Of a stretch of 48,006 nt of DNA, positions 2,221-25,918 are shown piece after piece. Location of the stretch: the IMG/VR virus record IMGVR_UViG_2913147268_000002. One strand, 5' to 3'. A program made the position numbers and the translations under genes. Every line of letters starts with the position of its first letter. The stretch's first letter is position 1. The notes beneath the pieces were generated by a model. That model was given only the letters and a program-made list of their open reading frames with translations. It was not told the DNA's origin and did not search any database. This DNA is from a virus (lineage: Duplodnaviria; Heunggongvirae; Uroviricota; Caudoviricetes).

Positions 2221-4118
2221 TCAACGAATACTGATGCCGGAAGCGGCTTTTTTGGTCACAATCACCGTACAGTCGGTGATATTGCCTGCCCCCTGATTGC
2301 CTTTCTGGAAAATCTTAAACTCCAGAGTGACGCTTCCCCTGCCACTCGGCATATCAATAACCGCACTGTAACTACCGGGAATGGCCCCTTTAGTTTCTCT
2401 GGATGCGATTAATACGCCGTTTTTGCGAACTTCAAAACCATAACCCGTGTATCGCGTGCCTCCTGGGTTATTTCCGCTCCCCGGATCGTCATACGCTATA
2501 CCGTTAAAAATAATGGGCGGAATAATAATCTGGCGGTCAAAGTTATGATCATCGCTGATGGTGACTGTAACCGTACCGTTTGGTGTTTCCGTGTTACCCC
2601 ACGTACCGACTTTTTTCGGGAAGGCTTTTGATACAGCTTTAACGAAATCTCCTCTGACCTGGGTCGCCTCCAGCATGCCCTTAATCGTACAGTTCTGGTT
2701 AATCGTGACATTGTTGAGCGTTCCTGAGTTCGCATTCACACTGCCACTGATATCCGCATTTTTCGCCGTCAGTCTCCCGTCTGATGTCAGGGAAAATGCC
2801 GGAGGATTACCGCCGCTGGTAATGGTGGGGGCCGTCAGGCGTTTCAGGAACACTTCATTCATGAATATCTGATCGCCCTGACCAACAAACATCGGCTTTG
2901 TGTTGCCATTCGCAGGATTAATCATCGCAATCCTGTCTGCTGCCAGCAGCACCTGACTCTGCATGCCGTCAGGGGTGTTCTCAATACCGGCACCGATACC
3001 CGCAATATAAAGGCGTCCGTCCTGCATCTGCTGCAGCTTCACTGCCCACATGCTGTTCAGGTTATTATTTGTATCAACCTGAACCTTCTGTATCTGCTGG
3101 ATCGCTGCACTCTGGTCTTCCAGTTTCTTATTGACGGTCTGTGTTATTTCATTGCTGACATCCGTTATGGACGTCCTGATTTCAGTCAGGTCAGGCGCAA
3201 GCTGACCGTTATCAATCTGCGTCCACAGCTCCTGAGCCAGATGGGTTTTCCCTATCTCGCCTTTGAAAAAATCCAGATAGCCTGATGCATCATCACTCGG
3301 CTGACCGACAGCCTCCACGAATGCCGATTTGCCAACGGTGTTCACACTGCGAACGTAAAAATAATAATCATGGCCCGGTTTGATATTGATACTGGCGGCT
3401 ATCCAGTACAGTGCCGTACCAAGATAACGCGCGCTGGTTTCAACCTGCCTGATATCCGCAATCCGTTTTTCCGAGAACCAGAACTCAAACTGTACCGTCG
3501 GGTCATAAACCGCAAGATGCGGCGTGGCGGTTATCTGAAAATAGCCCGGCGTCAGCTCAATCCGCGACGGCGCTGCCGGTGCGGCAATCCGGAACGATAC
3601 CGACGCCGGATCGCCCTGCTGCCCCCACGCATTTACTGCCCGGACTGTCAGCCTGTAGTTCCCCAGCGCCAGTTGTGTGAAGCGGTATGTGGTTTCCGTC
3701 GTCCGGGCCGTGCTGACCAGCCGCTCACGGCCGTCATCCGCTGCCACGGTCAGGCGAAGCAGGAAGCTCACGCCCTTCACCACCTTCGGCGTGTCCCAGC
3801 GGGCCAGCACCTGGTATTCCCCGCTGTCTGCGGTGACTTCTGCGGTCAGGTGCTGCACCGCTGGCGGCGTGACACCATTTACCGTGCAGCTCTGGTCGCC
3901 GTCAAAGTGCGCCCCGTTATCCACGATGGCCTCTTTTTCCGGTACATGCTGCACGGCGGTGATGGCATACGTGCCGTCGTCGTTCTCACGGATACTCACG
4001 CAGCGGAACAGGCGCTGGCGCAACGTCGGCAGCTTCAGCCCCCATACGCTGTATTCAGCAACGCCGTCAGGAACACGGCTCACTTTCACCTTCACGCCGT
4101 CGGTGACGGACTGAACCT
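2221..4118 (-). pseudogene. Tail tip / host specificity protein J, C-terminal about 630 aa (5'-truncated)
   Basis: [66 protein letters not shown]... is collinear with lambda gpJ through its C-terminus. Homology continues without a start codon to the 42-bp repeat at 4077-4118, where it abuts Stf-like sequence. Confidence 0.8.
4077..4118. repeat. 42-bp direct repeat, copy 2
   Basis: Identical to 28-69. Confidence 0.9.
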
Positions 4119-5548
4119 CAAGCCGTGCTTGCGATTTGGGTATTATTCGTTCCCTGTCGCGCAGTTGGTGTTGTTGGCGTTCCGGTCAGTGCAGGACTAT
4201 TTAAGGGCGCTTTCTTGTTCGTTTCACCCATTACCGCCTTAACCGCTTTTGGCGTTGCCGCCAGTGACTCGGAAGTGCTGTTGGTCGCACTGCTGAGCTG
4301 TACTATCCCCTTTTTCGTCGTGCTCGCATCCTCAAGCGCCACGGCGGATGCAATATCCTCTGCCCGTTTTGCCGCTGTCTCGGCGCGCGTTGCCGCGGAT
4401 TCCGCCGTACTTTTGCTCTGAGCTGCCGCCGTCGCACTGCCAGCTGCCTCTGTCGCCTTCGTGGATGCCGTCGTGGCGCTGCCCTTTGCTGCTGACGCCT
4501 GTCTGGTCGCCTCATCTTTTGAAGCAGACGCAGATGATGCCGATTCAATGACAGCTCCGGCGAGATGAATATTACCGCAGCCAGTATCAGTAATGATTTT
4601 ATTATTGCCATAAGACCAGGAACCCTTGCACATCCAGTATGGATGGTTAAATGCTCCCTGAGAATCCAGCCACTCGATAAACTGTGCAGTCGTCCAGTTT
4701 CCTGTTGTTGTGCTTACTGACCCACCGAAGGCACGGCAGGCACCAATATTTTTCGTAAAGGTGTCTTTGCCAGGGATATCCGCACCGTTCTGATCTTTCT
4801 GCAGACGTTTCTCAGCATTGTCATTGGCTGCTTTTACTGCCTTTGGCGTTGCCGCCAGCGTTTCAGACGTGCTGTTGGTCGCGCTGCTTAGCTGGATTAT
4901 CCCTTTCTGTGCTGTCGTTGCATCCTGTGCGGTGTATTTCCCGGTGTCGCCGCCGGGCGAGGGTTTGATTTCCGGTGCCTTACCACTAATGAAGGCTAAG
5001 GTGCGACCGGCTACGTTCAGAATAGCAGTTGCCATACGATCGGGAATAATGCCACGACGCGCCCATGAGCTGAAATGCGTCGGGCGATTTGATGATACCC
5101 AGTTTTTGTTCGTTCGGGATGCCGAACCGTAATAACCAGACCCGGCAATATCAGGATCTTCTGACGGGTTGTTTGTCGGTGTATTAACTCCGCTACCATC
5201 GGTCATAAAGGGAACAAAATAAATCTGCTGGGATTCTTTACCTTTATATGCACCATATACCACTTCATATTGCGTACCGTGTTCTTGTTTCCACGCGTAT
5301 GTCGTGTCGCCACAAATCCAGGGGACTGATGCCGGACTTCCACCGTGACACTGCGCCGCCAGCCCGGCAAGGTCAGCACGGAACTGCTGTACCATTGCAA
5401 GAAATGCTGCTGGCTGCTGGGCGTAACTGGCATTCGTCATATCGAATTCCCCCTGCATCCAGCATATCGCCAGCAAAACGTTTTTCGGGTTTTTCTGCAA
5501 TGCTGCCTTCGTGCGGAAAAGCAGATCCTGATATAACGGCTTACCCAC
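4118..5548 (-). pseudogene. Chimeric ORF: SASA-type esterase fragment + tail-fibre tip segment + Stf central segment
   Basis: N-terminal part has ICWMQGEFDM, resembling the WYQGES motif of sialate O-acetylesterase (SASA) domains, but lacks the N-terminal half of such a domain. Middle has KGIIQLSSATNSTSETLAATPKAVKA and a Cys-containing tip (GNIHLAGAVIE). C-terminal part (SASSASASKDEATRQ...[10 protein letters not shown]) matches the lambda Stf central region and ends at a stop formed at the J-repeat junction. Confidence 0.5.
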
Positions 5549-6387: not shown

Positions 6388-7434
6388 TCATTTTCTCTGG
6401 CCACCAACTACGGGCACTACTTTAACTTTCCGGTCATATGCTGCTGTCTGTCGCGGGTTCTTATGCCCGGAAATTGCTTGCTTCTCTTCCAGGCTGCCTT
6501 CCAGATCAGAGATACCTTTTGCTTTCAGATCATGAAATGTGAAGTCTATTTGCAGATGAGGATATTTTTCCTGTGCTGCCGCTTTGACATCACGCCAACG
6601 AGAGTTAAAACCATCACGGGTATACTTGCCACCGGTAGTTTGATGAATCACAAACAGGCTACTGATTCCCGTTTTTAATGGCAGAGAACGAGCCAGAGCT
6701 ATCGCTTTCTGCAGACGAGGCGACCAGGCTTTGATTTGCTTAACGCCGGTTTTTCCCTGACGAATGTAGATCCCGGAATCGAACAGCTGGTCTTTCTGCA
6801 ATGAAAGTACATCACTCTGTCTGGCCACGCATAAGTAGGCAATCTCCATTGCTACGCGAACAACATCAGGAGACACTTCATAAACGGCCTGATATTCTTC
6901 ATCCGTAATATAACGTTCGCGAGCTTTCTCTTTAAACTGTTTAACTCCCTGACAAGGATTCCTCTGAACATAACCTCGTTCATAACCCCAACGGAATACC
7001 CGGGACATAAAGCTTTTTTCCCTGTTTGCCTGAGTTCGGCTTGATAAACCGCGTTGATCCATATAGCGCCGAATATGTTCAGGTTTGATTTTATCCGGGT
7101 CGATCTTCCCGAAGACAGGCAGAACTTTTCCGGAATATTTTGTGTAGTCTTTCCGGGTTTCGACTGCCAAATCCATAAAATCAGGGGAGGTCATGAATTG
7201 TTCCGTGAGCGCCTGAAAAGTATTTCTTTCTTTTTCGTCACCGACCGCTTTTTCATATGCCAGCCATACGGCTGATCGTGGTGCATCCAATGCGCACAGG
7301 CGTATCGCTTTGTTATCTTTATTCCTGAATTCGTAGGCCGCTTTGCCCTGGTAAACACGAGGCGGCATCCAGTTATCTGCTGGGTTCTTTCTCTTTCCGG
7401 CCATTAAATATTGCTCCAAAATCAGGTTCATCAT
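6388..7434 (-). CDS. int: Tyrosine recombinase, phage integrase
   Basis: 348 aa with lambda-Int-like layout; C-terminal catalytic region includes HDLKAKGISD and ...ISGHKNPRQTAAYDR; start may be the internal MAGKRK. Confidence 0.9.
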   Translation of the reverse strand: MMNLILEQYLMAGKRKNPADNWMPPRVYQGKAAYEFRNKDNKAIRLCALDAPRSAVWLAYEKAVGDEKERNTFQALTEQFMTSPDFMDLAVETRKDYTKYSGKVLPVFGKIDPDKIKPEHIRRYMDQRGLSSRTQANREKSFMSRVFRWGYERGYVQRNPCQGVKQFKEKARERYITDEEYQAVYEVSPDVVRVAMEIAYLCVARQSDVLSLQKDQLFDSGIYIRQGKTGVKQIKAWSPRLQKAIALARSLPLKTGISSLFVIHQTTGGKYTRDGFNSRWRDVKAAAQEKYPHLQIDFTFHDLKAKGISDLEGSLEEKQAISGHKNPRQTAAYDRKVKVVPVVGGQRK

Positions 7435-7636
7435 CTTTTCGCGTCGTCACCTCCTGTAAATTGCGAAATTTTATTGGGTTCATGAAATGGCCCCAGGTTG
7501 TTTTTGGGTGTCCGTCAGCCCTTTCCATGAAGAAAATTCCAGCCCGGCGAAGAGCCTCACATTGCTTTGATTTAAGTGGGCTTCCCGTCAGCTCGACCAT
7601 TTCTTCTCTGGTGATTATGTCGTGATCGCTTTTCAT
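7373..7636 (-). CDS. Putative excisionase / small DNA-binding protein
   Basis: 87 aa immediately upstream of and overlapping the int start; call rests on position and size, not on a recognised motif. Confidence 0.45.
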   Translation of the reverse strand: MKSDHDIITREEMVELTGSPLKSKQCEALRRAGIFFMERADGHPKTTWGHFMNPIKFRNLQEVTTRKDDEPDFGAIFNGRKEKEPSR

Positions 7637-7845
7637 GGTCTTTCCTCATTATGTAGCTTATTGCGTCATCTGCCTTCTGGCAGGCACGGGCAATATCAGA
7701 CTCGGTCAAAGTCTGTTTCCTGACGCTGGCCGACAGTCGACCAATTTTGATATCAAATGCGGAGAGCAGAGTTGCTCCCGGTTGCCATCGCAGCATTGTG
7801 ATCCTCCGGTGTCTGGTGAATCGCAATGCTAGCGATGGTGAGTTT

Positions 7846-8028
7846 TTATTTCTGATTAGGCGTAATCAGTTCTTGTGGGGTGAATGCCGATTTCTCCCGA
7901 GTGACCTTAATGTTTTCTGGCAGGTGTAGCCCAAGTTCGCAGCGGCTCCGTGCTTCAATAATGCCATTGGTACCATCGGCAAGTACCAGGTGAACCGCGT
8001 CACCACGCTTTAATGTGAGTTTAAGCAT
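7846..8028 (-). CDS. Hypothetical protein (60 aa)
   Basis: Start overlaps the stop of the upstream gene (TAATG), suggesting translational coupling. Confidence 0.4.
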   Translation of the reverse strand: MLKLTLKRGDAVHLVLADGTNGIIEARSRCELGLHLPENIKVTREKSAFTPQELITPNQK

Positions 8029-8597
8029 TAGCGTATCCTCAGTGACCGTTCGCCGCGTTCCAGATGTGCGCCTGGTACCGGGTTTAATAACTCGGCTGGT
8101 GGTGTTTCTCCACGCGCCAGTATTTCGGCGGCAACCGCCTCCGCAGATTCAATCACTTCTTTAATGGCTCGCTTGTTTGGTGTAATAACCGTTTCTACAT
8201 CAACAAGTGACACGCCCTCATACTCATCCGGGATCTTATCTTTGCTATCGATAATTACCCGGATAGTCCCCTGTGCATCAGTAAATGTGTTTTTTGCGGT
8301 TTTCAGTTTATCCAGGCCAGCAGCTTGCAGGCAGGTGAGCATATGCTTTCGAATTGCTTTTTCCTTGCCTTCAAAGGACGTCTTACGGGTTGCCAGGCGA
8401 GACATTTCTTCAGCGCAGGTATTGGCATTGCCCTGTAAATTACGGCAGATGACCATCATGGCGTCCAGTTTGTCTCCCAGTTCTCCTTCCATGCCTTCAA
8501 GCGTGTCGGCGATCATCTCTGGCGTCAGTTCATCGGCGGTTTCTAACAGGTCAATCAGACTGGCATATTCTTTTGCAATAGCGATAGCAGTGCTCAT
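8028..8597 (-). CDS. Hypothetical phage protein (189 aa), recombination-module position
   Basis: ATGA overlap with the upstream 738-aa gene; acidic, helix-rich; function inferred only from position between the annealing protein and xis/int. Confidence 0.5.
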   Translation of the reverse strand: MSTAIAIAKEYASLIDLLETADELTPEMIADTLEGMEGELGDKLDAMMVICRNLQGNANTCAEEMSRLATRKTSFEGKEKAIRKHMLTCLQAAGLDKLKTAKNTFTDAQGTIRVIIDSKDKIPDEYEGVSLVDVETVITPNKRAIKEVIESAEAVAAEILARGETPPAELLNPVPGAHLERGERSLRIR

Positions 8598-10810
8598 GCT
8601 GTTTGCTCCTGTGCAGCGGTAAGGGCGGCGAGGCGTTCAGTTTTAATGTCGGTGATACGGCGCAGACGTGATCCCAGATACGATGAATATTCTTTATCGC
8701 CTTTGGTTTCCGCTGCTTTCCTGTGTACATCCACTTCGCGGGCGATGAGGCCAAATACCTTGTTTACTTCGTTGGCGGTTACCGCGGCGGCCAGCGTATT
8801 GGCAACGTTGATAAGCTTCTCATCCAGTTCCTTACGCAGACGGGTAGCATCTTCCGCATTCTCGCTGGCATTCTTGATATCAAACTCAGCTTTATTCCTC
8901 TGGCGGTATTCCGGATTGTCGTACAGGCCCATGAAAATATCGGCGCTGAATCCGAGAGGGGATAGCGCTTTCTTAACAGCATCCGTCCAGGATTTCTTCG
9001 GTGCTTCGCCGTCGCTTGTTGGTCCGTATTTAGTGTCGTAGATATAAGGTGTGCATCCGTAAGCCTCGGACTCACCGCGTACCCCATTCAATATGTACCA
9101 GACTCTCACTTTCATGGTGTGGTGCATTTCACATAGGTACCCGCCAACACCGTCTTGAATCAGATCCCATTCTATTTTTTCACCAACCTGTTTTTTGCGA
9201 ACTATTGGTGCGCCTTTATCAAAGCGCTCCTCCAGCACCTCTACCCCCCAGCCAATACCAAATGGCCCAAATTCGCGAGTCGCTTTCATCGCTATATAAG
9301 TGCCGTTGATGGATGTGCCGCCGCCATTCTGAGAGAAAGCACTGGTGAAGCGCTCATCGGTTTTGAATACGTTCTTCCACAATGCCAGGTTATCCGTGTC
9401 ATCTGAGTCCTTTAACTCCGTTTCGATAGCTGAGATTGCATTCTGCCGCTTGTGCTCTTCGGCATGGATCCGCTCAACCAGCGCGTCAACGTTCTGCACC
9501 AGATCCTTTACCTGCTCGCTAAGTTGTTCTTGTGGAGGAGTCTCTTCTGCCAGGGTAATAGCTGCAGGTTCCCTCTGTGATACGGCGTTATTTTCAGGTA
9601 CGTCATACACATGGCGAGGCGTGACAAACTGCTCACGCAACTGCTGCAAACTACGTTCTCCAGCATTTGCAGCTTCGCTTTTTTCGCCCTGATTTGAGGG
9701 TGTTTCTGACATCATCCCATCAATTGAGAATCGTCCGCCGCCGTGGTTGGTGACTTTTACATCATCCTTGGGTGCTGCTTCCTTTGGCTTCTCTTCAACA
9801 GCATTTGCATCACGCTGCCCGTTAGCTTGCAGCCAGTTGTCGATGTGACTGCGCAGGGATTGTGGGAAGTGGTACGTGTCTTTTGCGGGGGCGCTCTGAA
9901 TAACACCGAATACTGATGCGCGGTCATAGGCAAGGATCTGATCCGTTGTGCGCAAGGCCATTGACCAGCGTTTAAAATCTTCCCTGTCCTGACTGATTAT
10001 TTCGTCTGCCGCTTTCAGGATGCTGGGGGTGATTTTTTCCGGGGCAACAGGTAACAGGGCGCAGGCAATTTCACGATCCAGAGTGGCGTGAGTCTGTTTG
10101 TAAGGACGTGCGGATGCTGTTTCTGGTTTTACCTCCGGCAGCATTTCATCTCGTTTACCGGGATTCTCTACCCATTTTTTTATAAATTTGGAGATAGTCC
10201 AACTGGTCGGGTTTTGTTCCTGGGTATCGCAACTTGCCAAAATTGCATGTACCAGATTATTCAATCCAGCAATATGCATGTACTCGATGGGCTTACACGC
10301 CACCATGGCATCAAGAACGATGCGGTTAAACGCGTCAACCTCATCCTCACTGTCAGTATCACTGTTATCGAGCATCTCCAGGTATTCACGCGTCTGCACA
10401 AGCAATTCACTGTCGACTTCGTTGGCGTCGTGGCTGAACAGCAGAACGGCGGCGAATCGTTCACGAGCCGGCAGTTTCATCAGGTCGCTAACCTGTGAGA
10501 TATCTGCTGAACTGCAATCTGAATCAACAGGAGTGTTAACTACCCATTTTTCGCCATCAAAACTGTGTTCTGTGGCAAACGTCTCATCAAACTCACCGAC
10601 GCCTGGGCGCGGTTGGCCCGGGGCATCTTCCCAGATTTTAGGTTTGAAATAGTTGTCGCCGTGGTCAGGGTAGGCTTCCCACAATTTGCCGATGATGATG
10701 TTCTCGGCAACTTTTTTGTTAGGGGCGGCGATGGCGATGGCCAGCGCCGGGATCGCGCCGTTTTTGAGCGCGCCTTTTTTCGCTTCTAACAAGCCGTTAA
10801 AAATGGTCAT
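8594..10810 (-). CDS. Large recombination protein with C-terminal Rad52/Sak-like single-strand annealing domain
   Basis: C-terminal 160 aa (TYIAMKATREFGPFGIGWGVEV ... KKSWTDAVKKALSPLGFSADIFMGLYD) resemble the Rad52/Sak signature. N-terminal 500 aa unrecognised, with an acidic low-complexity stretch. RBS GAGGAAAGACC precedes the ATG. Confidence 0.6.
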   Translation of the reverse strand: MTIFNGLLEAKKGALKNGAIPALAIAIAAPNKKVAENIIIGKLWEAYPDHGDNYFKPKIWEDAPGQPRPGVGEFDETFATEHSFDGEKWVVNTPVDSDCSSADISQVSDLMKLPARERFAAVLLFSHDANEVDSELLVQTREYLEMLDNSDTDSEDEVDAFNRIVLDAMVACKPIEYMHIAGLNNLVHAILASCDTQEQNPTSWTISKFIKKWVENPGKRDEMLPEVKPETASARPYKQTHATLDREIACALLPVAPEKITPSILKAADEIISQDREDFKRWSMALRTTDQILAYDRASVFGVIQSAPAKDTYHFPQSLRSHIDNWLQANGQRDANAVEEKPKEAAPKDDVKVTNHGGGRFSIDGMMSETPSNQGEKSEAANAGERSLQQLREQFVTPRHVYDVPENNAVSQREPAAITLAEETPPQEQLSEQVKDLVQNVDALVERIHAEEHKRQNAISAIETELKDSDDTDNLALWKNVFKTDERFTSAFSQNGGGTSINGTYIAMKATREFGPFGIGWGVEVLEERFDKGAPIVRKKQVGEKIEWDLIQDGVGGYLCEMHHTMKVRVWYILNGVRGESEAYGCTPYIYDTKYGPTSDGEAPKKSWTDAVKKALSPLGFSADIFMGLYDNPEYRQRNKAEFDIKNASENAEDATRLRKELDEKLINVANTLAAAVTANEVNKVFGLIAREVDVHRKAAETKGDKEYSSYLGSRLRRITDIKTERLAALTAAQEQTA

Positions 10811-10840
10811 TGGTCTTTCCTCATTACAGGTCAGTGGTTT

Positions 10841-11161
10841 TTAGTAGGGGAGCTCATCGGTATCTGGCGTGTATTCGATGCAAAGTAACTGCTGGATTTT
10901 GTCATCGATAGCAGCAATACGCTGTTGGGCGTCGGCGACTGTTTTCTGTTTTTGTTCACGCAGTTGCTCGACCTGTAAACCGATGATGTCGATTGGCTCG
11001 GGCTGGTTAACGGTAATTTCAATTTCGCGGCTTTCCAGAAGGATGTACCTGTCTGGAAAATTTTTTGACATATCAACAGTCGCAACAAGCAGCTTTTCGT
11101 GGCTGAAAGTTGAAGTTGCATAATGAATAAAGAGTGTTACTGGGATGGTGCGCGCTTCCAT
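10841..11161 (-). CDS. Hypothetical protein (106 aa), first gene of the leftward operon
   Basis: Strong RBS AAGGAG 7 nt before the ATG. Confidence 0.5.
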   Translation of the reverse strand: MEARTIPVTLFIHYATSTFSHEKLLVATVDMSKNFPDRYILLESREIEITVNQPEPIDIIGLQVEQLREQKQKTVADAQQRIAAIDDKIQQLLCIEYTPDTDELPY

Positions 11162-11600
11162 AGCGACTCCTTGGTAATGTATACTCAGAGCCGATCAGCG
11201 AATATTGATCAGCTTCCATAGCGTCAGTGTCGTTGGTCTTTCCTCATCACAAGTTTGGTCACTTGTGATAAATCCGAATGGTTTGGTCGCCGTTCGGGGT
11301 AACTGGCCCGCCTTGTGCGGGTCTTTTGCTATCTAAAGGGTGCCGGTTACGTTTCCGGCGTCGTTATGTTTCCATTACGACCGTACAGGGCTGGTCAGGC
11401 CCGGGCTGGTCTTTCCTGTTTTGAGCTGGTCAGGCTCATGGTCAACGCTGGTCAGGCGTGGTACTTCCTCCGGTCTTTCCCTGGTGTCACGCTGCGGGTT
11501 TGGCCTCTCCTGTTGGGGACTCAGGCACAGCGATAAAACCTGGCTGTGTGAAAAAATGGCCCATCGTGCGGACTGGGCAAAGACTAAACACAGCAAATTG

Positions 11601-11690
11601 ATGATGGGCGCCCGGAATCGAACCGGGTAACGGGCAGGGAGTTCCCGTTAAACACCTGTTCACCACAACCGGGAGCGCACTCCGCCATTT
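11601..11690 (-). other. tRNA-like fragment (T-arm CCCGG-TTCGATT-CCGGG) inside a structured non-coding leader
   Basis: Minus strand reads ...CCCGGTTCGATTCCGGGCGCCCATCA. A canonical 7-nt T-loop with a perfect 5-bp stem, but no acceptor stem can be paired with the 5' side. Confidence 0.3.
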
Positions 11691-12029
11691 CAAAATTTAA
11701 CGACAAAGCTCAAAGTTGAGTCGATGAAGTGCGCTCTCGTGTTGTAGCCAGGACTCTTCCCTGGTGGTCACACCGTATCGCCTTGATGGTGAATCAATCG
11801 CTCATACCTGGCTGTGGCTTGCACATTCCGGCTACCTGCTATGGAGACAACGCGTTAAGGCTCCGCTTCCATCCAGACCGCTTCGACACATGTGCCATAT
11901 GCCGGTGAAGTCTTTCCCTCTGTCACCGTGTTGGCGCCGACGCGCAAAATTTGGTGCCGTCTTTCCGGCTGTCAGAACGTGTTTCTGAACAACTGCCGCT
12001 GGGTAAGCGTTGTTGATGAAAGTGACTTT

Positions 12030-12080
12030 ACAATTTGTATTTGTAATGGTCAATGTGTTTTTAAAAAATAATTTGTAGTG
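12030..12080 (-). promoter_or_regulatory. Candidate OL/PL operator-promoter region
   Basis: ATTTGTA-type half-sites (atttgtatttgtaatgg, aatttgtagtg) just beyond the repressor 3' end, matching those in the cI-cro intergenic region. Confidence 0.35.
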
Positions 12081-12171
12081 AGGGGCAAAAAAATATTCAC
12101 TGTGTAAAGGTGTTTTTGTGTTAGGGGAAAGTTGCATGCCAGCAGCGGCTGGCCTGGAAATTTGAACTGAA

Positions 12172-12585
12172 CTATTTTGTCTGGTTTTTGGCTTCAAGTA
12201 GTTCTTTTAGCAGTAGATCGAAGTGCTCTCTTTTTTCTTTTAGCTCATTGATTAATTTATTTTTTTCGCTCTCAGGCAGTCCTCTGAATAGTTGCAGTAG
12301 AGCCTGTTCTTGCGGGGTTAGTTCTTGATTGTAATTACCCGGGTGTAGTGTGGATTCATCCAAATATTCCCCTTCATTCATGAAGAAAAAATGAACAGGG
12401 TATCCGGTCACTTTTGCTAGCTTGTCTAATTTATCTTTTCTTGGAGTTACCCCATTACACCATGCCTGAACTGATTGAGCCGTAACCCCAATATGGCGAG
12501 CTAACTCAGATTGAGACCAGCCTAAGTCTTTTAGAATCCGTTGTAGTCGGCTAGCAAAAGCCATGTTTTTCGTTTTTGTGTTCAT
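12172..12585 (-). CDS. Phage repressor, HTH XRE family (RacR/cI-like), no S24 peptidase domain
   Basis: HTH at LGWSQSELARHIGVTAQSVQAW; short helical C-terminus without a Ser-Lys autocleavage domain; divergent from a Cro-like gene. Confidence 0.8.
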   Translation of the reverse strand: MNTKTKNMAFASRLQRILKDLGWSQSELARHIGVTAQSVQAWCNGVTPRKDKLDKLAKVTGYPVHFFFMNEGEYLDESTLHPGNYNQELTPQEQALLQLFRGLPESEKNKLINELKEKREHFDLLLKELLEAKNQTK

Positions 12586-12619
12586 ACCGTAAGGATACAA
12601 GGTTTAATTGTAGGGAGCA

Positions 12620-12662
12620 TTGCAAATATAATTTGTAATTACAGTTATTGTTTGTAATGATG
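12620..12662. promoter_or_regulatory. Candidate OR operators / divergent promoters
   Basis: Perfect 10-bp palindrome TGTAATTACA at 12634-12643 plus further TTTGTAAT repeats between the divergent repressor and cro-like genes. Confidence 0.45.
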
Positions 12663-12683
12663 ACGCGGACACAAGGAGTCCAT

Positions 12684-12914
12684 ATGGATAAACAACTGCA
12701 AGACAAAATTCTTTCCGTAATGAGTCAATCCGAGTTAGGGCGGCGATTAGGGAAAAAACCACAAACGGTAAGCCTCTGGTTCAAAGGACGGGTTCCCGGT
12801 GAAGAGGTTTTGCGCACATCTGAAGCTCTTGAATGGCGCGTGACCCCTCATGATCTTAGACCGGATCTTTACCCAAACCCAGATGACAGCTTGCCTAAAA
12901 CGGAAGCAGCTTAA
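12684..12914 (+). CDS. Cro-like HTH regulator (YdaS-like)
   Basis: Start at ATG 12684 preceded by AAGGAG; HTH-like LGRRLGKKPQTVSLWFKG; position divergent from the repressor. Confidence 0.7.
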   Translation: MDKQLQDKILSVMSQSELGRRLGKKPQTVSLWFKGRVPGEEVLRTSEALEWRVTPHDLRPDLYPNPDDSLPKTEAA

Positions 12915-12972
12915 CTGTTGGTGAGCCCCAAATCTGATTAAGCGTAATCAATTTTTAGCGACAGGAGACGCT

Positions 12973-13449
12973 ATGGAAAACCAAGAGGAATTACAAAAAG
13001 AGATTTTGACCTGGGCGGCAAGGGCAGGGCAGGAACTCGTCACGATTGAAATCTGCCGGGCCTGGTTCAGTCAGGGACGCAATGATGAGTTGAGACTACA
13101 TGAATTTGAGGACGCGGACGGCAACGTGGACTGGAGAGCCATCAACAACAATCGGCAGAAAATCTTTCGCTGGTTACGTGGCGAGACAACGGCGGCGCGC
13201 CGAAAAACTCAGGTGCTGGCCAGTGTGATGAAAGCCGTGCTACCCGCAGAACGGCGGGCACGTCTGGAGTCGCCGGGCGATCCCGTTTTGCTGGCAACGC
13301 TGGCGGCAAAAGAAGGGGTGGAAGCGATTAACGCTGTACATCTCCACTTCGCGCCAGAGTTAACTATTCAGGAAATTGACGAAGCAATAGCGGCGCTGGT
13401 AGCGACGCGAGGAGCAGTGATACGCACTGCGCAAGACCACCATGCATGA
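12973..13449 (+). CDS. YdaT-like / CII-like regulatory protein (putative)
   Basis: 158 aa directly after the cro-like gene, as in Rac-type immunity regions; assignment by position and size. Confidence 0.5.
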   Translation: MENQEELQKEILTWAARAGQELVTIEICRAWFSQGRNDELRLHEFEDADGNVDWRAINNNRQKIFRWLRGETTAARRKTQVLASVMKAVLPAERRARLESPGDPVLLATLAAKEGVEAINAVHLHFAPELTIQEIDEAIAALVATRGAVIRTAQDHHA

Positions 13450-13488
13450 GCGCCTGACCAGCGTTTAACTTATACCGAGGAAAGACCG

Positions 13489-13713
13489 ATGTTAAGACAT
13501 ATTGACCGCATTACCTGGCGTAACGGCTGGCACCTGAATGGACGCCCGGCACATGTTGCAGAGATCCGCCCCATATTCGATGGCCGCGTCGCAGCTGCAC
13601 GTTCTGTATGGGAAAAGTACGAAGAAGAAAAAGCGAAACTGCGTGAGCAAAATCTCTCTGGCGCTGCCTATGAGGCTGGCTGTCGCGTTCTCTCAGAGGC
13701 TTTGGGCATATGA
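13489..13713 (+). CDS. Hypothetical protein (74 aa)
   Basis: Preceded by the conserved element cgcctgaccagcg...ccgaggaaagaccgATG. Confidence 0.4.
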   Translation: MLRHIDRITWRNGWHLNGRPAHVAEIRPIFDGRVAAARSVWEKYEEEKAKLREQNLSGAAYEAGCRVLSEALGI

Positions 13714-14465
13714 ACATCCTCCCGTTACTTGATAGACCCATAGCCTTCCAGAGAAGTTTTATCCGTCTTGAAATGGGCGTGACTGCCGCATTGTTTCTGT
13801 CGCAGTTGACGTACTGGACAAACAGAACAACTGACGACGGCTGGGTATATAAAACCCAGGATGAGTGGGAAGAGGAAACAGGGCTTTCACGATACGAGCA
13901 GGAGGGCGCGCGCAAAAAACTACGTGGTCTCGGCGTCTTGCTGGAACGTAAACAGGGCTTGCCTGCCAGGCTGTACTACAAAATCGATAATGATGTGTTG
14001 TGCCAGCTACTTACGTCCGCATACAAGGATGCGGAAAAACCACATACAGGTGAGGGGAAAACCACCAGGCCTGTACGTGGAAAACCAACAAACATTCTTA
14101 CAGAGAATACTACAGAGATTATTACTGATGGTGAATCGGCTGACGCCGACACCCAACAACCTGCCGACCAGAGAATAAATTATCAGGTGATACTCGATAC
14201 CTATCACGAGATTTTGCCAGAGATGCCACCAGTGAAAATCCTCACTGACGGCAGAAAAAAACACCTTCGCACTTTCTGGAAAAAATTCAATTTCAATGAG
14301 TCCCGTTGGCGGGCCTATCTGGAATTTATCGGTGGCAATTGTCGCTGGATGCTGGAGGACAGGCCAAATGGCAGGGGAGGATTCTGGCGGCGTAAAAATC
14401 TTGATTATCTGATTACCGAACGCTGCTATGTTTCGGTCAAGGAAGAACGCGCAAATGATAAATAA
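13710..14465 (+). CDS. Replication initiation protein / replisome organiser (O-like)
   Basis: 251 aa immediately upstream of and overlapping (ATGA) the DnaB-like helicase; N-terminal region resembles phage replisome-organiser domains. Confidence 0.6.
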   Translation: MNILPLLDRPIAFQRSFIRLEMGVTAALFLSQLTYWTNRTTDDGWVYKTQDEWEEETGLSRYEQEGARKKLRGLGVLLERKQGLPARLYYKIDNDVLCQLLTSAYKDAEKPHTGEGKTTRPVRGKPTNILTENTTEIITDGESADADTQQPADQRINYQVILDTYHEILPEMPPVKILTDGRKKHLRTFWKKFNFNESRWRAYLEFIGGNCRWMLEDRPNGRGGFWRRKNLDYLITERCYVSVKEERANDK

Positions 14466-15870
14466 CGCGATTGCACTGTACAGCGTTGACGCAGAACAGG
14501 CTGTTCTGGGCTGTCTGATGCTGAATACCGACCACGACAGAACCAATGCGGTATTTGCGTTACTGAAACCGGAAACGTTTTATATCAATGCGCATCAGGT
14601 TATCTACCGGGAGATCAAAGGATTATTTCAAGCTGATAAACCAACTGACCTGATAACACTGACCGAACTGATGGAATCGAAGGGGCTGTATGAGCGCGTG
14701 GGGGGATTCGCATACCTGGCTGAAATGAGTAAGGCGGCGATTCCGGCCTCAATGGTCAACTACGCGAAAATTGTACGTGAAAAAGCCATTCTTCGTTATG
14801 CCGTGGAAAAGTTGAATTCTTGTCTGGAGATTATGATCCAGCCTGCAGATATGACTGCTACTGACAGGATCACCGCCGTTCAGCAAGTGATTGGGCAGGT
14901 GGCCGAACATTCCCGTACCGGGCATAAGGGCGGTTTGCGTCCGGCAAGTGAAGTCGTCGATGACTGGATAGATGACCTTGAGCGCCGTTTCAATGATCCA
15001 GCACATGCAGCCGGACTAACGCTCGGAATCGAAAGCCTTGATCGCTTAATGGCACCAAAGCAGGCGTTAAGAGGTTCATTGGTCGTTATTGGTGCCCGGC
15101 CAAAAATGGGCAAGACAGCCGCGTTTAATAAAATTGCGGTGCATTTTGCTCTGAATCATCGTTTGCCGACGCTGGTATTTAGCCTGGAAATGACTGACAG
15201 AAGTCTCATTGAACGCATGGTTGCGCAGGAAGCAAAGGTCAATTCGGAGATTTTTTATCTTGGCCCTAACGATGAATCTGAATTGAGTCTCGCAATAGCA
15301 AAGGCGGGGGAGATTGCCGAATCCAACATGATGATTGACAGCACGGCAGGTGTAACCCTTGCGCATATTGTCGCTGAATGTCGAAAAGTTAAACGGATGC
15401 GTGGCTCGGTTGGCCTGGTGGCAATTGACTATTTGACGCTGATGAAGACCGAATCGGCAGAGCGTAGGGATATTGCGTATGGCGATATCACAACCGGTTT
15501 GAAGAACCTGGCAAAAGAGCTGGATTGTGTTGTGGTCCTGCTGACGCAACTCAACCGAAAGCTTGAAGAACGTGCCGATAAGCGGCCTAACCCGAGCGAC
15601 AGTAAAGATACCGGGCAGATCGAACAAGATTGCGATGTCTGGATTGGCCTCTATCGTGATGCTGTTTATAACGAAAATGCCGACCCAAATCTCATGGAAA
15701 TGTTGCTACGTCTGAACCGCGAAGGACCATCGGGAACAGCCTATGCCCTGATGAAAAATGGCTCAGTTATTGATATCAGCGATGAGGAGGTTTATCGCCT
15801 TACCAACGACCGCTCAGAAAAAAATAAACGTTATTCCCGTAGCGATAATTCTCGCACAAATGAATTTTAA
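14455..15870 (+). CDS. Replicative DNA helicase, DnaB family
   Basis: Walker A GARPKMGKTA; DnaB-like N-terminal domain (AEQAVLGCLML) and C-terminal RecA-like fold. Confidence 0.9.
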   Translation: MINNAIALYSVDAEQAVLGCLMLNTDHDRTNAVFALLKPETFYINAHQVIYREIKGLFQADKPTDLITLTELMESKGLYERVGGFAYLAEMSKAAIPASMVNYAKIVREKAILRYAVEKLNSCLEIMIQPADMTATDRITAVQQVIGQVAEHSRTGHKGGLRPASEVVDDWIDDLERRFNDPAHAAGLTLGIESLDRLMAPKQALRGSLVVIGARPKMGKTAAFNKIAVHFALNHRLPTLVFSLEMTDRSLIERMVAQEAKVNSEIFYLGPNDESELSLAIAKAGEIAESNMMIDSTAGVTLAHIVAECRKVKRMRGSVGLVAIDYLTLMKTESAERRDIAYGDITTGLKNLAKELDCVVVLLTQLNRKLEERADKRPNPSDSKDTGQIEQDCDVWIGLYRDAVYNENADPNLMEMLLRLNREGPSGTAYALMKNGSVIDISDEEVYRLTNDRSEKNKRYSRSDNSRTNEF

Positions 15871-15908
15871 CCACGCCTGACCAGCGTGAAATAACCGAGG
15901 AAAGACCA

Positions 15909-16319
15909 ATGACCACCACTCCAGGCAAATTAGAGTACCCGTCGGACAAAGGACACATAGACGACGGTAAAAACTATCTCGACGTCATTTTGTGGAATAT
16001 GAACGTCGGGCCACGTGCGCGCACTCGCGCGGTTTTTGTGCCAAGACCTAAAGCAGGCAATTTTTCAACCCCTGCTAAGCCTGCCCGTCAGGCATCCGTA
16101 GCCGCAGCGCCAGCAGTGAAACGTAAGGGCAAAACGCACACCGGGATCGCGATTCGCAGAAATGGTGAGCGGCAAGTGAAACTCCACGAAACAGCGACAA
16201 CCTGGTGTGCCTCACCGCATGAAACTTACGACAAGATAACCGGGCAGCGCATTGGCGCGCCTGGTCGCTGCCGCCTGCTGCTGAGTTCCATCACTCCGAT
16301 AGCAAAGAAAGGGGCGTGA
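15909..16319 (+). CDS. Hypothetical protein (136 aa)
   Basis: Preceded by the same conserved element (cgcctgaccagcg...ccgaggaaagaccaATG); composition Arg/Pro-rich, so uncertain. Confidence 0.35.
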   Translation: MTTTPGKLEYPSDKGHIDDGKNYLDVILWNMNVGPRARTRAVFVPRPKAGNFSTPAKPARQASVAAAPAVKRKGKTHTGIAIRRNGERQVKLHETATTWCASPHETYDKITGQRIGAPGRCRLLLSSITPIAKKGA

Positions 16320-17495: not shown

Positions 17496-17719
17496 ATTGA
17501 CTTAGAAAAAGTCCGGGGCTATAGTTTCCGCGCAGCCGCAAAATCGGTTGCCGGGATTGGCGTCCCGGATATCTAAGTGACGCATAGCCGCGTTAGCGGT
17601 TTTTTTATGTGTTAGGCACGGCCACATTCGCATTATGGTGGGCTGTGTGGGGGCTTCTGTGGAAGCGCCGGGTTCACTTAGCCGGTTACGCCAACCCTGC
17701 ACAGCTCACCACCAGATGA

Positions 17720-18556
17720 TTGGCGTCGCTGGTGGTGATGAAAAAAACACTAAGTGAGGCCACTGCGATGACAGTCCAAATATCTGCGGAATCCCTTTCT
17801 CCGCTACATCATAACCAACTTCCCGTCATCACTACTGAATTGCTTGCCAGTTTGTATGGCACGGAAGTAAATGGTATCCAGCAAAACTTCAAGCGCAACA
17901 TCGCCAGATTTGTCGTAGGAAAGCATTTTTTTAAGCTGGAAGGTAATGAATTACGCGACTTCAAAAACAGACTGACAGATAGTCAGTCAGTTGCTAAACA
18001 TACCCGATCCCTCATTCTCTGGACAGAACGCGGCGCAGCTCGCCATGCCAAAATGCTGGAAACAGAACAGGCCTGGGAAGTTTTCGAAAAGCTGGAAGAT
18101 TGTTATTTTAGCCAGCGTCCAGAGAGGCGGAGTACAACTACCGATGACCGTACTCCCTTGCGTGATGCCGTTAATATACTGGTCGGCAAGAAAGGCATGA
18201 TGTATCCCGATGCCTACACCATGATTCATCAACGCTTCGCCGTCTCTCACATAGAACAACTGTCACAGACGCAAATGTTAGAGGCGATTGAATACATCCA
18301 CTGCCTGCTACTCGATGAAAATCACCCAACCATTCCAGATTTTTCTTTTATCACCACTATCAAAAATGGAAAAGTGACCGGGATGCGCCATGTTGCCAAA
18401 GGCGAACATCTGATGACCTTTGACGCTTTCAAAGAGATCGCTGAGCGGGCAGGGTATCTGGTGATCCACAGCGACAATCTGCGAAGTATGACACTGGATA
18501 AATTGATGGTAATGGGGAAAAAGTCGGCTATATCCGTTGCTAATTCAGCATTTTGA
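17720..18556 (+). CDS. ORF6N-domain protein, putative antirepressor
   Basis: N-terminal region LPVITTELLASLYGTEVNGIQQNFKRNIARF...LILWTERGAARHAKMLETEQAWEVFEKLED resembles the ORF6N/KilA-N-related domain of phage antirepressors; start uncertain (17720, 17738 or 17768). Confidence 0.6.
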   Translation: MASLVVMKKTLSEATAMTVQISAESLSPLHHNQLPVITTELLASLYGTEVNGIQQNFKRNIARFVVGKHFFKLEGNELRDFKNRLTDSQSVAKHTRSLILWTERGAARHAKMLETEQAWEVFEKLEDCYFSQRPERRSTTTDDRTPLRDAVNILVGKKGMMYPDAYTMIHQRFAVSHIEQLSQTQMLEAIEYIHCLLLDENHPTIPDFSFITTIKNGKVTGMRHVAKGEHLMTFDAFKEIAERAGYLVIHSDNLRSMTLDKLMVMGKKSAISVANSAF

Positions 18557-25628: not shown

Positions 25629-25918
25629 AAAAAATCGACCTGAGAAAAGCTGCACGCAGTCGCGCTTGTACTGTGCGTATCCCCGGTGTGTGCAATCACA
25701 ATCCTGAAACCAGCGTACTGGCTCATTATCGTCTCGCCGGAACGTGCGGCACAGCCATCAAACCTCACGATATGCAGGGCGCTATCGCCTGCAGTGCGTG
25801 TCACGATGCCATCGACGGACGTACAAAAACGGATTACGAGCACGACTCATTGTTGTTGATGCACGCTGAGGGAGTTTTCAGAACACTGGCTATCTGGCGC
25901 GATGAGGAGTTTATCTGA
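25625..25918 (+). CDS. Cys-rich small protein (DUF1364-like)
   Basis: 97 aa with Cys/His cluster (CTVRIPGVCNHNPE...CSACHDAIDG); ATGA overlap with neighbours. Confidence 0.5.
   Translation: MKKIDLRKAARSRACTVRIPGVCNHNPETSVLAHYRLAGTCGTAIKPHDMQGAIACSACHDAIDGRTKTDYEHDSLLLMHAEGVFRTLAIWRDEEFI

Follow-up and report, generated by a model that had tools for sequence, protein, structure and literature searches.

A candidate two-part target module for a predicted trans-acting antisense RNA in the early transcripts of Enterobacterales prophages

The C4 RNA of phages P1 and P7 (ImmI, RF01695) pairs with a and b target boxes on the early mRNA, blocking translation and silencing downstream genes, and the specificity that separates P1 from P7 rests on a few bases that differ in the RNA and its targets. 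Short, terminator-ended RNAs convergent to an early transcript are also encoded by P22 (sar, against the ant ribosome-binding site, RBS) and lambda (OOP, against cII), and both base-pair with the mRNA and reduce its expression. In Cluster K mycobacteriophages, the SAS and extended SAS (ESAS) are asymmetric, RBS-containing motifs located a few bases before start codons, which mark a conserved subset of non-structural genes in one shared orientation, have an inverted repeat just upstream in about half of the cases and show clade-specific consensus differences; the available portion of their description gives their function as unknown and names no complementary RNA gene (PMC3203893). Lastly, the boxB hairpin of phi21 displays a hexaloop, CUAACC, that is bound by the N peptide (PMC12550061).

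The window analyzed here is a viral DNA stretch of 48,006 nt. Its host context is that of an E. coli prophage. Repeated elements in its early transcripts, composed of an RBS tag and an upstream hairpin, are probably, if by no means certainly, the two-part target module of a trans-acting, translation-blocking phage antisense RNA, as judged from comparative sequence evidence. The candidate RNA resembles C4 in being a small phage RNA with short conserved segments and two boxes, one of them over the RBS, and the two clades of relatives that we term A and C differ much as P1 and P7 do. C4, however, is cut in sense orientation from the leader of the very transcript it controls and has one target operon, whereas the candidate RNA is antisense-encoded, with its own predicted promoter and terminator, and the tag heads four blocks spanning both early operons. 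Membership in RF01695 was rejected for lack of a match to the covariance model: nothing in 11100-12250 reached the gathering score, the best plus-strand Rfam matches there being isrB (15 bits) and isrK (14 bits). The true C4/isrK homologue of the window lies elsewhere, at 17519-17716. Like sar and OOP, the candidate RNA is short, terminator-ended and convergent to the early transcript, but those RNAs act on a single overlapping gene, while here the overlapped site is gene-less in the window and sites identical to it occur at four distant genes. The likeness to SAS lies in an asymmetric motif at the start codons of non-structural genes that form a conserved subset, part of the copies being preceded by an inverted repeat; in contrast, SAS occur in 11-19 copies with 17-bp inverted repeats of conserved arms, whereas the stem here is short and covarying and it is the loop that is conserved (PMC3203893). 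The SAS sequence GGGATAGGAGCCC is unrelated to the tag, and the phages considered here are Enterobacterales prophages, unrelated in host and phage group to Cluster K, so that SAS/ESAS membership was rejected in favor of analogy only (PMC3203893).

Tag and hairpin copies in early transcripts

The initial annotation had described near-identical 38-41-bp segments preceding the genes at 13489 and 15909, and these coordinates hold, with both segments stopping 1 nt short of the ATGs. The segments combine the hairpin-forming CCTGACCAGC with the tag GAGGAAAGACC, and the copies of both parts are given below together with the predicted duplexes formed by the seed of the candidate RNA.

7634-7647, minus strand: tag GAGGAAAGACC (7637-7647) fused to the ATG of the DUF4224/excisionase-like gene; predicted seed duplex of -25.1 kcal/mol
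10808-10822, minus strand: tag GAGGAAAGACC (10812-10822), A and ATG of the 738-aa exonuclease; predicted seed duplex of -32.5 kcal/mol, 19 bp
11235-11247, minus strand: cis tag copy GAGGAAAGACCAA (exact GAGGAAAGACC at 11235-11245) in the pL leader, with no start codon after it in the window
11380-11490, minus strand: array of hairpins and tag copies in the pL leader, non-coding and followed by no gene
11390-11399, 11425-11434 and 11447-11456, minus strand: CUGACCA hairpins of the array, exact CCTGACCAGC
11408-11418, minus strand: tag variant CAGGAAAGACC of the array
11471-11482, minus strand: GGGAAAGACCGG of the array
13447-13467, plus strand: hairpin of composite element 1, with exact CCTGACCAGC at 13453-13462, loop CUGACCA at 13454-13460 and closing pair C13453-G13461
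13477-13491, plus strand: tag GAGGAAAGACC (13477-13487), G and ATG of the 74-aa gene; predicted seed duplex of -25.6 kcal/mol, 15 bp
15872-15888, plus strand: hairpin of composite element 2, with exact CCTGACCAGC at 15876-15885, stem CACGC/GCGUG and loop CUGACCA at 15877-15883
15897-15911, plus strand: tag GAGGAAAGACC (15897-15907), A and ATG of the 136-aa gene; predicted seed duplex of -30.6 kcal/mol, 17 bp including the AUG

Beyond the five exact copies of CCTGACCAGC in the window, ten matches are found with up to one mismatch (2.06 expected), a count reached in none of 100 shuffles, and the GAGGAAAGACC-type tag, CAGGAAAGACC included, has six matches (0.53 expected). The 8-mer GGAAAGAC occurs 11 times against 1.29 expected; ten of these copies lie within the early region (7147-15906), all on the minus strand to the left of the cI-like gene and on the plus strand to its right, in keeping with the proposal that every copy is sense to local transcription. 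The reverse-complement composite noted at 11408-11434 is indeed on the minus strand, and is therefore sense to the leftward transcript. The assignment of the motif as RBS of the 738-aa gene was likewise borne out; of two further copies proposed near 11234-11244 and 11470-11480, the first is exact and the second (GGGAAAGACCGG) retains the core only. The DUF4224/excisionase-like tag and the leader CCTGACCAGC copies at 11390 and 11447 had not been listed.

In each of four translationally coupled early blocks, GAGGAAAGACC(A)AUG is the RBS of the first gene only. The exonuclease heads a block continuing into the Gam-like gp157 and a 60-aa gene, and a degenerate loop, CA[CUGACC]UG, lies near its tag at about 10828-10837; the DUF4224/excisionase-like gene overlaps the integrase gene in the xis/int block; the 74-aa gene precedes rep (13710) and DnaB (14455); and the 136-aa gene heads the next block (16321, 16554, 16862). 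In loci fetched via a protein, and hence blind to the motif, the tag is present in 48/48 unique contexts of the exonuclease, 34/38 of the 74-aa gene, 27/31 of the DUF4224 gene and 6/7 of the 136-aa gene. The same loci show it in no context of cro, ydaT/cII, the 106-aa gene, rep, dnaB, gp157, the 60-aa gene or the theta-like gene, the internal genes of coupled blocks being never tagged, and they lack an upstream CUGACCA hairpin at the DUF4224 gene tag. The suggested count in related phages places the composite CCTGACCAGC-N(5-30)-GAGGAAAGACC in at least 120 IMG/VR viral contigs, and in phage BUCT708 (~74% identical) it occupies the same gene junctions.

The hairpin part, CCUGACCAGC, is on sequence analysis a short mRNA hairpin with a covarying stem of 4-7 bp and a fixed 7-nt loop, CUGACCA; CUAACCA loops occur as well. 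The hairpin at 13447-13467 begins at the YdaT/cII-like stop codon and folds at minimum energy into a 7-bp stem with a 7-nt loop, and that at 15872-15888, directly 3' of the DnaB stop codon, is also the minimum-energy fold (z-score -1.99); in many phages one hairpin sits within the end of the upstream reading frame. In a set of 111 unique instances, for which loop and downstream tag were the sole selection criteria, stem positions 1-4 pair in 100-108 cases, with CG/GC, GC/AU and GC/GU alternatives. On the mRNA strand G·U outnumber A·C combinations by 23 to 5, which points to RNA hairpins folding on that strand.

A shared translational signal, one of the roles put forward initially, is correct for the GAGGAAAGACC part, which 0-1 nt separate from the start codons of four window genes. 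A module boundary promoting mosaic exchange, also proposed, lacks support as a primary role: the spacers between hairpin and tag vary among copies of a single genome, in contrast to the constant 10-11-nt tag and 7-nt loop. The position of one hairpin inside a reading frame in many phages, and the single family to which most genes after the helicase junction belong, speak against it as well. Recombination at these ~35-nt repeats may occasionally take place.

A candidate antisense RNA gene in the pL leader

What looks like a small antisense RNA gene occupies about 11190-11330 of the plus strand, opposite the pL leader and just upstream of the first leftward gene. Its predicted product, of ~125-140 nt, comprises four stem-loops and a terminator, and its 5' end is probably near 11190.

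11178-11183, plus strand: putative -10 box TATACT, a consensus match, convergent with pL, in the 5' UTR of the 106-aa gene
11204-11330, plus strand: candidate small RNA gene, covariance model match of 106.5 bits, the sole one in the window
SL1, plus strand: GAUCAG paired with UUGGUC in the predicted fold
11229-11245, plus strand: seed region GUCGUUGGUCUUUCCUC, with the UUUCCUC linker predicted single-stranded
11246-11272, plus strand: SL2, loop UUUGGUC in the predicted fold
11275-11300, plus strand: SL3, loop UUUGGUC in the predicted fold
11305-11323, plus strand: terminator-like site, a hairpin followed by UCUUUUGCU

Searches with a covariance model made from 27 diverse copies give a single match in each of 72 Enterobacterales loci, among them loci in Citrobacter, Raoultella, Serratia, Pseudescherichia, E. 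whittamii and Rosenbergiella genomes; the match is always on the antisense strand, 20-150 nt upstream of a homologue of the 106-aa gene. Paired cells make up 93.7% of the total in the alignment, whereas shuffles give 78.9% and slid partners no more than 50.5%; 18 of the 27 pairs show changes on both sides, and the covariation score is 0.469 versus 0.207, with 0/500 shuffles as high. On the plus strand, G·U cells number 224 and A·C cells 11, and the fold therefore exists on that strand only, as a strand comparison hairpin by hairpin also indicates. Compensatory changes on a single strand support a conserved secondary structure.

Consensus matches also point to a dedicated promoter and Rho-independent terminator. 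TATACT or TATAAT is present in 55/55 unique contexts; in 52 of them 7 nt separate it from the GATC of SL1, while its distance to the RBS of the 106-aa gene varies; an extended TG accompanies it in 13 of the 55, and the -35 region is poor. Across relatives, the terminator is a GC hairpin followed by 4-7 U, on the same strand as the candidate RNA.

Complementarity and concerted change of seed and targets

The most conserved stretch of the candidate RNA, UUGGUCUUUCCUC, with invariant seed columns in the alignment, is the exact Watson-Crick complement of the RBS tag. Because it matches a conserved antisense RNA of the same phage in this manner, the GAGGAAAGACC tag is likely to be a target of the small RNA. 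The complementarity takes in the GAGG of the Shine-Dalgarno sequence and extends to the AUG in two cases, and two apical loops (UUGGUC) are complementary to the GACCA(A) of the hairpin loops and of the tag. Among 59 start regions in the window, the four tagged ones give the top four seed duplexes (15-19 bp), the next best reaching -21.8 kcal/mol and the median -12.5; the predicted seed is hence complementary to several translation initiation regions, as a trans regulon would require. Complementarity to the cis copy at 11235-11247, whose template complement is the seed itself, is automatic for any antisense RNA. The UUGGUC part of the seed is predicted to be partly paired within SL1 (mean unpaired probability ~0.55), so that pairing with targets would need strand invasion.

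In phage ZF40 and 34 contigs (the C clade), essentially all tag copies, the cis copy included, read GGCAAGACC, as at the RBSs of ZF40 gp07 (GGCAAGATC), gp13 and gp16, and the A form is missing in 33 of 35 loci; in the A clade, GAGGAAAGACC is found in 436/446 trans sites. The change from GGAAAGACC to GGCAAGACC in the targets, accompanied by U to G in the seed, forms a natural compensatory pair. Seed and targets thus appear to covary, in concert within each clade, but through few independent events, and the A/C difference is probably a single one. At the base before AGG, T is found at trans sites in 7/32 cases where the cis copy has T and in 0/446 where it has G, a partial effect that stems from eight related loci. 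For the loops, a tabulation of RNA types against target types gave no usable covariation; in one locus (L191) GUGGUU stands in both loops of the RNA, although CUGACCA persists in most target loops.

The architecture of the leader array recurs in ~80 loci, and its copies read the C variant in the ZF40 clade; we infer that they are decoys for the small RNA. As a separate observation, pL-proximal G[GAAAGA]C hairpins at 11910 and 11959 keep GAAAGA in the C clade, which places some GGAAAGAC copies outside the small-RNA scheme.

Alternative readings and a proposed mechanism

A phage RNA-binding protein recognizing the CUGACCA loop, the tag or both, whether as an arginine-rich, N-like antiterminator acting on boxB-type sites or as a translational repressor, could account for part of these observations, with the antisense RNA acting in cis only on the pL leader or competing for the protein. 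This explanation seems unlikely, but it has several points in its favor. A fixed loop on a covarying stem is typical of protein-binding operators, the hairpins resemble boxB in being short, in lying on early transcripts and in their pyrimidine-U-purine-A-C-C type loop, CU(G/A)ACCA being close to the CUAACC of phi21 (PMC12550061). The phage also has a Q-like late antiterminator, two leader terminators precede the first leftward gene and some antitermination is therefore to be expected, and the concerted, clade-wide A-to-C change could reflect co-evolution with a phage protein. A conserved boxB-type hairpin was hence found, but the loop is of 7 nt, and the hairpins are far from promoters, directly before RBSs rather than just downstream of promoters, with three in the leader. 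Designation as nut sites was rejected: boxA (YGCTCTTTA, up to one mismatch) has 18 matches against 20.6 expected, none near the hairpins, and no member of the N family or of another RNA-binding family was found among the early proteins with PHROGs, Pfam, NCBIfam and PDB sequences; an N gene may still lie in a very short unannotated reading frame. Furthermore, a protein leaves unexplained why the tag should be complementary to the very stretch of a structured RNA that is best conserved.

It is decidedly improbable that the tag is simply an optimized RBS or translation enhancer, copied by common descent or gene conversion, and the hairpin an mRNA end-protecting or processing structure, with no dedicated trans factor. 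A GAGG 8 nt ahead of the AUG is ordinary for a Shine-Dalgarno sequence, the RBSs are predicted to be unpaired, and hairpins at the ends of reading frames could stabilize processed messages. The anti-Shine-Dalgarno match spans only 4 nt, however, whereas more than 400 copies share 10-11 invariant nt, and scans of viral contigs for changes at two other tag positions found none, returning only unrelated high-GC sequences. Nor do host ribosomes provide a cause for a genome-wide joint switch from A to C, or for the conservation of gene-less leader copies, and the differing spacers beside the tag argue against gene conversion.

Action of the repeats on DNA, as oriented protein-binding sites (iterons, or sites akin to the stoperators of Cluster A mycobacteriophages, which are asymmetric and oriented with transcription, as these are) or as homology blocks for module exchange, fits their position at gene-block junctions and the variable gene 3' of the helicase junction, but is highly improbable given that a covarying stem with a fixed loop is the opposite of a dimer-binding palindrome, that the G·U excess on the sense strand points to RNA, that the sites are confined to the early region, that palindromes of another kind, of the TACAAATTGTA type, serve as the real operators near pL and pR, and that the genes following the helicase belong mostly to one divergent family sharing a DDGCD motif.

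In the antisense RNA model, the small RNA would initiate pairing with the tag through its single-stranded UUUCCUC linker, thereby occluding the RBS; a loop-loop contact with the upstream hairpin might assist, although this idea is weak, involving just 4-6 nt of pairing. Translational coupling would then spread silencing through exonuclease/Gam, excision/integration, rep/DnaB and the downstream early genes, whereas cro, the cII-like gene and the 106-aa gene, with an ordinary AGGAG site, would escape. More speculatively, the RNA might be made while pL is repressed, thereby backing up the repressor, and after induction convergent pL transcription and the leader array would titrate it. The locus bears no annotated feature in 443 E. 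coli genomes in RefSeq. The candidate antisense RNA gene is conserved and so far unannotated, and may provide these prophages with coordinated translational control of their early blocks.

The recurring element and the genes it heads

The recurring element is real and lies far above chance expectation, its core GGAAAGAC being present in 11 copies in the window against 1.29 expected, and the positions reported for it in the initial annotation are correct. The sense orientation relative to local transcription described there holds for every early-region copy, and the copies listed there can be extended by a tag at 7637-7647 and by two more hairpins from the leader. Two components can be distinguished: a hairpin motif, CCTGACCAGC, with five exact occurrences in the window, and a ribosome-binding-site tag, GAGGAAAGACC, with five exact occurrences and one carrying a single mismatch. 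The gene map of the window, a lambdoid-type E. coli prophage, is as follows.

Early region, leftward operon and antiterminator
12172-12564 (-), cI-like repressor
12684-12914 (+), cro/YdaS-like gene
12973-13449, YdaT/cII-like gene
13489-13713, 74-aa gene
13710-14465, replication initiator (rep)
14455-15870, DnaB
15909-16319, 136-aa gene, with overlapping small genes after it
12030 down to 11240, non-coding pL leader of about 800 nt, first part of the leftward operon
10841-11161, 106-aa gene, after the leader
8594-10810, 738-aa exonuclease, after the 106-aa gene
After the exonuclease, Gam-like gp157 gene, then a 60-aa gene
7373-7636, DUF4224/excisionase-like gene, after the 60-aa gene, with the integrase next
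25918-26589, Q-like antiterminator

In four genes (7636, 10810, 13489, and 15909) the tag ends 0-1 nt upstream of the ATG, so that the earlier proposal of a shared translational signal stands in outline; its fullest account is most likely a hitherto unannotated candidate phage small RNA together with a tagged regulon, a variant of the known phage antisense-RNA theme. Each tagged gene is the first after an intergenic gap, and its successors overlap stop-to-start. The cro, cII-like, and 106-aa genes use another ribosome-binding site, AGGAG(T/A)C(G/C)(C/A)TATG, found at 12670-12686, 12959-12975, and 11159-11175 (-), that is, at exactly the early genes that lack GAGGAAAGACC. The gene specificity of the tag extends to 75 loci retrieved through the 106-aa protein, independently of the motif.

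Unique contexts with the tag upstream of the gene
Exonuclease: 48/48
74-aa gene: 34/38
DUF4224 gene: 27/31
136-aa gene: 6/7
60-aa gene, gp157, 106-aa gene, cro, ydaT, rep, dnaB, theta-like gene: 0 in each

At the 74-aa gene (38/38) and the 136-aa gene (7/7), as at most exonuclease genes (33/48), the loop motif lies upstream together with the tag; at the DUF4224 gene it occurs in only 1 of 31 contexts. The proteins encoded after the helicase (window 15909-16319 and homologues; PHROG 5148/4183) have highly variable N-termini, with a DDGCD(W/Y) motif common to them at around residue 15.

In composite elements from at least 120 IMG/VR contigs, the sequences on either side of CTGACCA pair with one another. 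Of 111 unique instances, selected by the loop and downstream tag only, stem pairs 1-4 are paired in 100-108, with CG/GC, CG/AU, and GC/AU/GU alternatives, and the stems hold 23 G·U against 5 A·C combinations. On the mRNA strand, these covarying flanks therefore define a stem of 4-7 bp topped by a fixed CUGACCA loop of 7 nt (minor variants CUAACCA and AUGACCA). In RNAfold predictions the hairpins at 13447-13467 and 15872-15888 both form, with the tag remaining unpaired. The hairpin of the 74-aa gene lies inside the 3' end of the cII-like frame in many relatives, and in the window the frame ends just before it; the constraint is therefore on nucleotides, not on protein.

Candidate antisense RNA gene and the pL leader

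Conservation of the pL leader is modular, and a structured antisense RNA gene very probably lies opposite it. Across 46 unique homologues of the 170 nt upstream of the 106-aa gene, two hairpins with sense-strand GACCAA loops form uninterrupted 9-10 bp stems on the antisense strand in essentially every variant, while on the sense strand many are interrupted by C·A mismatches. An adjoining GC-rich hairpin is followed by 4-7 consecutive T on the antisense strand. In 52 of 55 contexts a TATACT/TATAAT box is separated from the first stem by 7 nt (13 contexts have an extended TG), its spacing to the 106-aa ribosome-binding site being variable. Eight diverse versions of the RNA fold into one common architecture (about -62 kcal/mol), in which a first hairpin, SL1, pairing a conserved 5' GAUCAG with UUGGUC, is followed by a single-stranded UUUCCUC linker, two hairpins with apical UUGGUC (SL2 and SL3), and a terminator. 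RNAalifold lends support to all three hairpins, SL1-SL3: 16 of 26 pairs show compensation.

When a covariance model was trained on 27 copies of the RNA, its sole match in the window was at 11204-11330 (+), with 106.5 bits against 13.9 for the runner-up. In 72 loci it matched once each, in every case antisense to the 106-aa homologue and immediately upstream of it. In the 72-locus alignment, which was fitted to the model and is hence biased towards the structure, paired cells amount to 93.7%, as compared with 78.9% after shuffling and at most 50.5% with slid partners, changes on both sides are seen in 18 of 27 pairs, and the covariation score is 0.469 against 0.207, a value that none of 500 shuffles equals. 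Independent MAFFT/RNAalifold and per-hairpin folds concur, and the excess of G·U (224 cells) over A·C (11 cells) fixes the strand of the RNA.

Of 5426 complete E. coli genomes, 475 contain the stretch 10700-14400, mostly at 99% identity or more (e.g., strain SK1144); the prophage family occurs in about 8% of these genomes, chiefly in the ST131 pandemic lineage, and across the Enterobacterales. The RNA is also found in prophages of Citrobacter, Raoultella, three Serratia species, Pseudescherichia, E. whittamii, and Rosenbergiella. No isolated phage matched the region by Megablast, and distant blastn yielded as useful relatives only Pectobacterium phage ZF40 and the 'Stenotrophomonas' phages BUCT708/709 (OM816834, OM816835), which are syntenic with the prophage family, about 74% identical, and carry the same RNA and tags. 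The recorded host of the latter looks doubtful, because every other carrier found belongs to the Enterobacterales. A search with the ZF40 106-aa homologue gained only close relatives. Five of 14 genome-contig pattern matches (Bosea, Bacteroidia, an uncultured Gammaproteobacteria MAG, Armatimonadota, and Bacteroidota) were attributed to chance, the covariance model not confirming them.

Rfam, at gathering and E-value thresholds, gave no family for the leader or the antisense RNA, RprA-like (37 bits) and tRNA-Sec-like (19 bits) matches being sub-threshold; RefSeq has no annotated feature at the RNA locus in 443 E. coli genomes, and full-text literature searches returned no description of the RNA or motif, the motif strings matching unrelated primers only. 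In BUCT708-type relatives (3560-3673 (-) in OM816834, and many other loci), the leader tag copy whose template complement is the RNA seed (the cis copy) is joined to an ATG and a 37-codon frame overlapping the 106-aa start. Because the window lacks this ATG (GACCAACG), the frame is not conserved and is probably no gene. Two identical CRISPR spacers, TCGTTGGTCTTTCCTCATCACAAGTTTGGTCAC, follow one another in E. coli strain 2020CK-00188, between repeats similar to those of E. coli type I-E. They match the seed and SL2 exactly (window 11229-11261; 401-433 and the next unit in locus L255).

Other features of the pL leader
11305-11323, bidirectional hairpin of the RNA gene, second leader terminator
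11380-11490, array of three hairpins plus two tag cores, not followed by a gene
11559-11590 (-), intrinsic terminator T1, GCCCA...UGGGC then AUUUUUU, preceded by conserved AUUGCUGUGUGUAGUCUUUGCC
11603-11683 (-), tRNA-like 3' half, with a long-arm-like hairpin, GGTTCGATTCC T-arm, and acceptor strand
11733-11904, leader downstream of the pL-proximal module, 74% identical to unannotated DNA of Salmonella phage SPN1S
11910-12018 (-), module directly after pL, about 80-84% conserved in most relatives, with a long hairpin (GGCAGUUGUUCAGAAACACGUUCUGACAGCC) and two G[GAAAGA]C hairpins (11910-11917 and 11959-11966), stems covarying

The presence of two terminators in the leader implies an antitermination step. 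The T1 stem shows compensatory changes in relatives, and the weak RprA-like match (E 0.013) overlaps it. The tRNA-like 3' half is kept in ZF40 (about 5470-5545 (-) of its locus) and absent from BUCT708; ARAGORN finds no tRNA there and the tRNA-Sec model gives the same 19 bits only; it may act as a processing signal for RNase P or RNase Z.

Seed-tag complementarity and clade co-variation

In the RNA alignment, the columns that never vary are GAUC, GGUCUU-CC, and the loop UGGU of both SL2 and SL3. Its segment GUCGUUGGUCUUUCCUC complements (G)AGGAAAGACCAA(U/C)GAC, which corresponds to the tag between the Shine-Dalgarno GAGG and the start codon, both included. Full-length duplexfold against start regions allowed huge internal loops and was uninformative, and seed-only duplexes were used instead. 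Among 59 start regions, the four tagged starts give -32.5 (19 bp), -30.6 (17 bp), -25.6 (15 bp), and -25.1 kcal/mol, the next best being -21.8 with large internal loops and the median -12.5, a ranking that is partly built into the definition of the tag, unlike the pairing beyond the 11-mer. On balance, we favor the reading that the recurring element is the target of the RNA, pairing with which would block initiation at the first gene of each of four coupled blocks.

The tag differs in concert between phage clades, with GGAAAGACC in one (A clade) and GGCAAGACC in the other (C clade). In ZF40, a C-clade phage, the cis site is GGCAAGACC, and hence the RNA seed GGUCUUGCC, and the ribosome-binding sites are GGCAAGACC for gp13 and gp16 and GGCAAGATC for gp07; its helicase junction retains the CUGACCA hairpin. 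A scan for the C form found 34 further contigs, and the resulting 35 loci carry up to 10 C-form copies each, 33 of them without the A form. In the A clade, GAGGAAAGACC is present at 436 of 446 trans sites, the tag copies other than the cis copy. In eight loci with the cis site TAGGAAAGACC, the corresponding trans-site base is G in 19 cases, T in 7, A in 5, and C in 1; elsewhere, T at this position occurs at 0 of 446 trans sites. Scans for variants at tag positions 6 and 7 returned chance high-GC matches only, with none in true relatives.

A protein co-evolving with the tag would be expected to leave the same clade pattern, in a co-variation that rests on few independent events; the sole complementary partner of the tag found is the antisense RNA. 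The concerted differences argue that the factor reading the tag is clade-specific, and therefore not the host ribosome. Extended pairing with the 16S rRNA 3' end, in a segment that forms part of helix 45, is also off register by one, as judged by eye. CsrA is excluded as the binding factor, its GGA being destroyed in the C clade. The GAAAGA loops near pL are kept even in the C clade, which places the G[GAAAGA]C hairpins outside the RNA-seed scheme.

Beyond the seed, the RNA loops, UUGGUC(A), complement GACCA(A/G), a sequence common to the 3' part of the CUGACCA loop and the tag end, and both RNA and target loops appear to fit the YUNR U-turn pattern of fast-pairing antisense systems. Tentatively, the target hairpin might serve as a kissing partner of these loops. 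In one relative (L191) both RNA loops are GUGGUU, yet the target loops are mostly still CUGACCA, and tabulation of RNA against target loop types gave no usable covariation, altered-loop loci being few and some missed by the pattern.

Known systems and proposed regulation

The mechanism proposed here is like that of the P1/P7 C4 RNA, which uses two short boxes, one of them over a ribosome-binding site, and similar to that of P22 sar. Unlike these, the present RNA is antisense-encoded and would have several targets, and it is not a member of RF01695; the real C4/isrK homologue of the window lies at 17519-17716 (+), with Rfam matches above gathering to isrK (80 bits), C4 antisense RNA (75), and a1/b1 target boxes (53), directly upstream of an ORF6N-domain gene (17720-18556). 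This arrangement resembles the P1 ImmI region and would constitute a second RNA-based control module of the prophage. The hairpin loop resembles the phi21 boxB loop CUAACC (PMC12550061). Assignment to nut sites fails on boxA and on N: no boxA and, among the early proteins, no N family were found, and a put-RNA-like comparison of the leader with the HK022 immunity region revealed neither similarity nor motifs. PDB sequence searches with the 74-aa and 106-aa proteins gave no match.

A close parallel in anatomy, by analogy and not homology, is offered by the start-associated sequences (SAS) and extended SAS motifs of Cluster K mycobacteriophages, which are described as being of unknown function (PMC3203893). 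By the same analogy, tag and small-RNA logic might account for those motifs.

The leader array has a conserved architecture and follows the clade variant. As speculation, it may be a decoy for the RNA, and its tags and hairpins would neutralize the RNA when pL fires. A wider scheme, which we regard as rather unlikely, would make the system an immunity layer, in which a constitutive antisense RNA and tags heading the recombination, excision, and replication blocks form a second lysogeny lock, the leader array is a sponge, and the GGAAAGACC and GGCAAGACC clade pairs define specificity groups.

If the proposed targeting is correct, a single unannotated RNA, about 130 nt long, would control replication, recombination, and excision at the post-transcriptional level, and the phage would be able to label chosen genes of its own with a ribosome-binding-site tag for joint control. 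The A and C variants would then represent a natural orthogonal RNA-tag pair for synthetic translation control, and the start-associated repeats of other phages, whose function has been open since 2011, would gain a testable mechanism.
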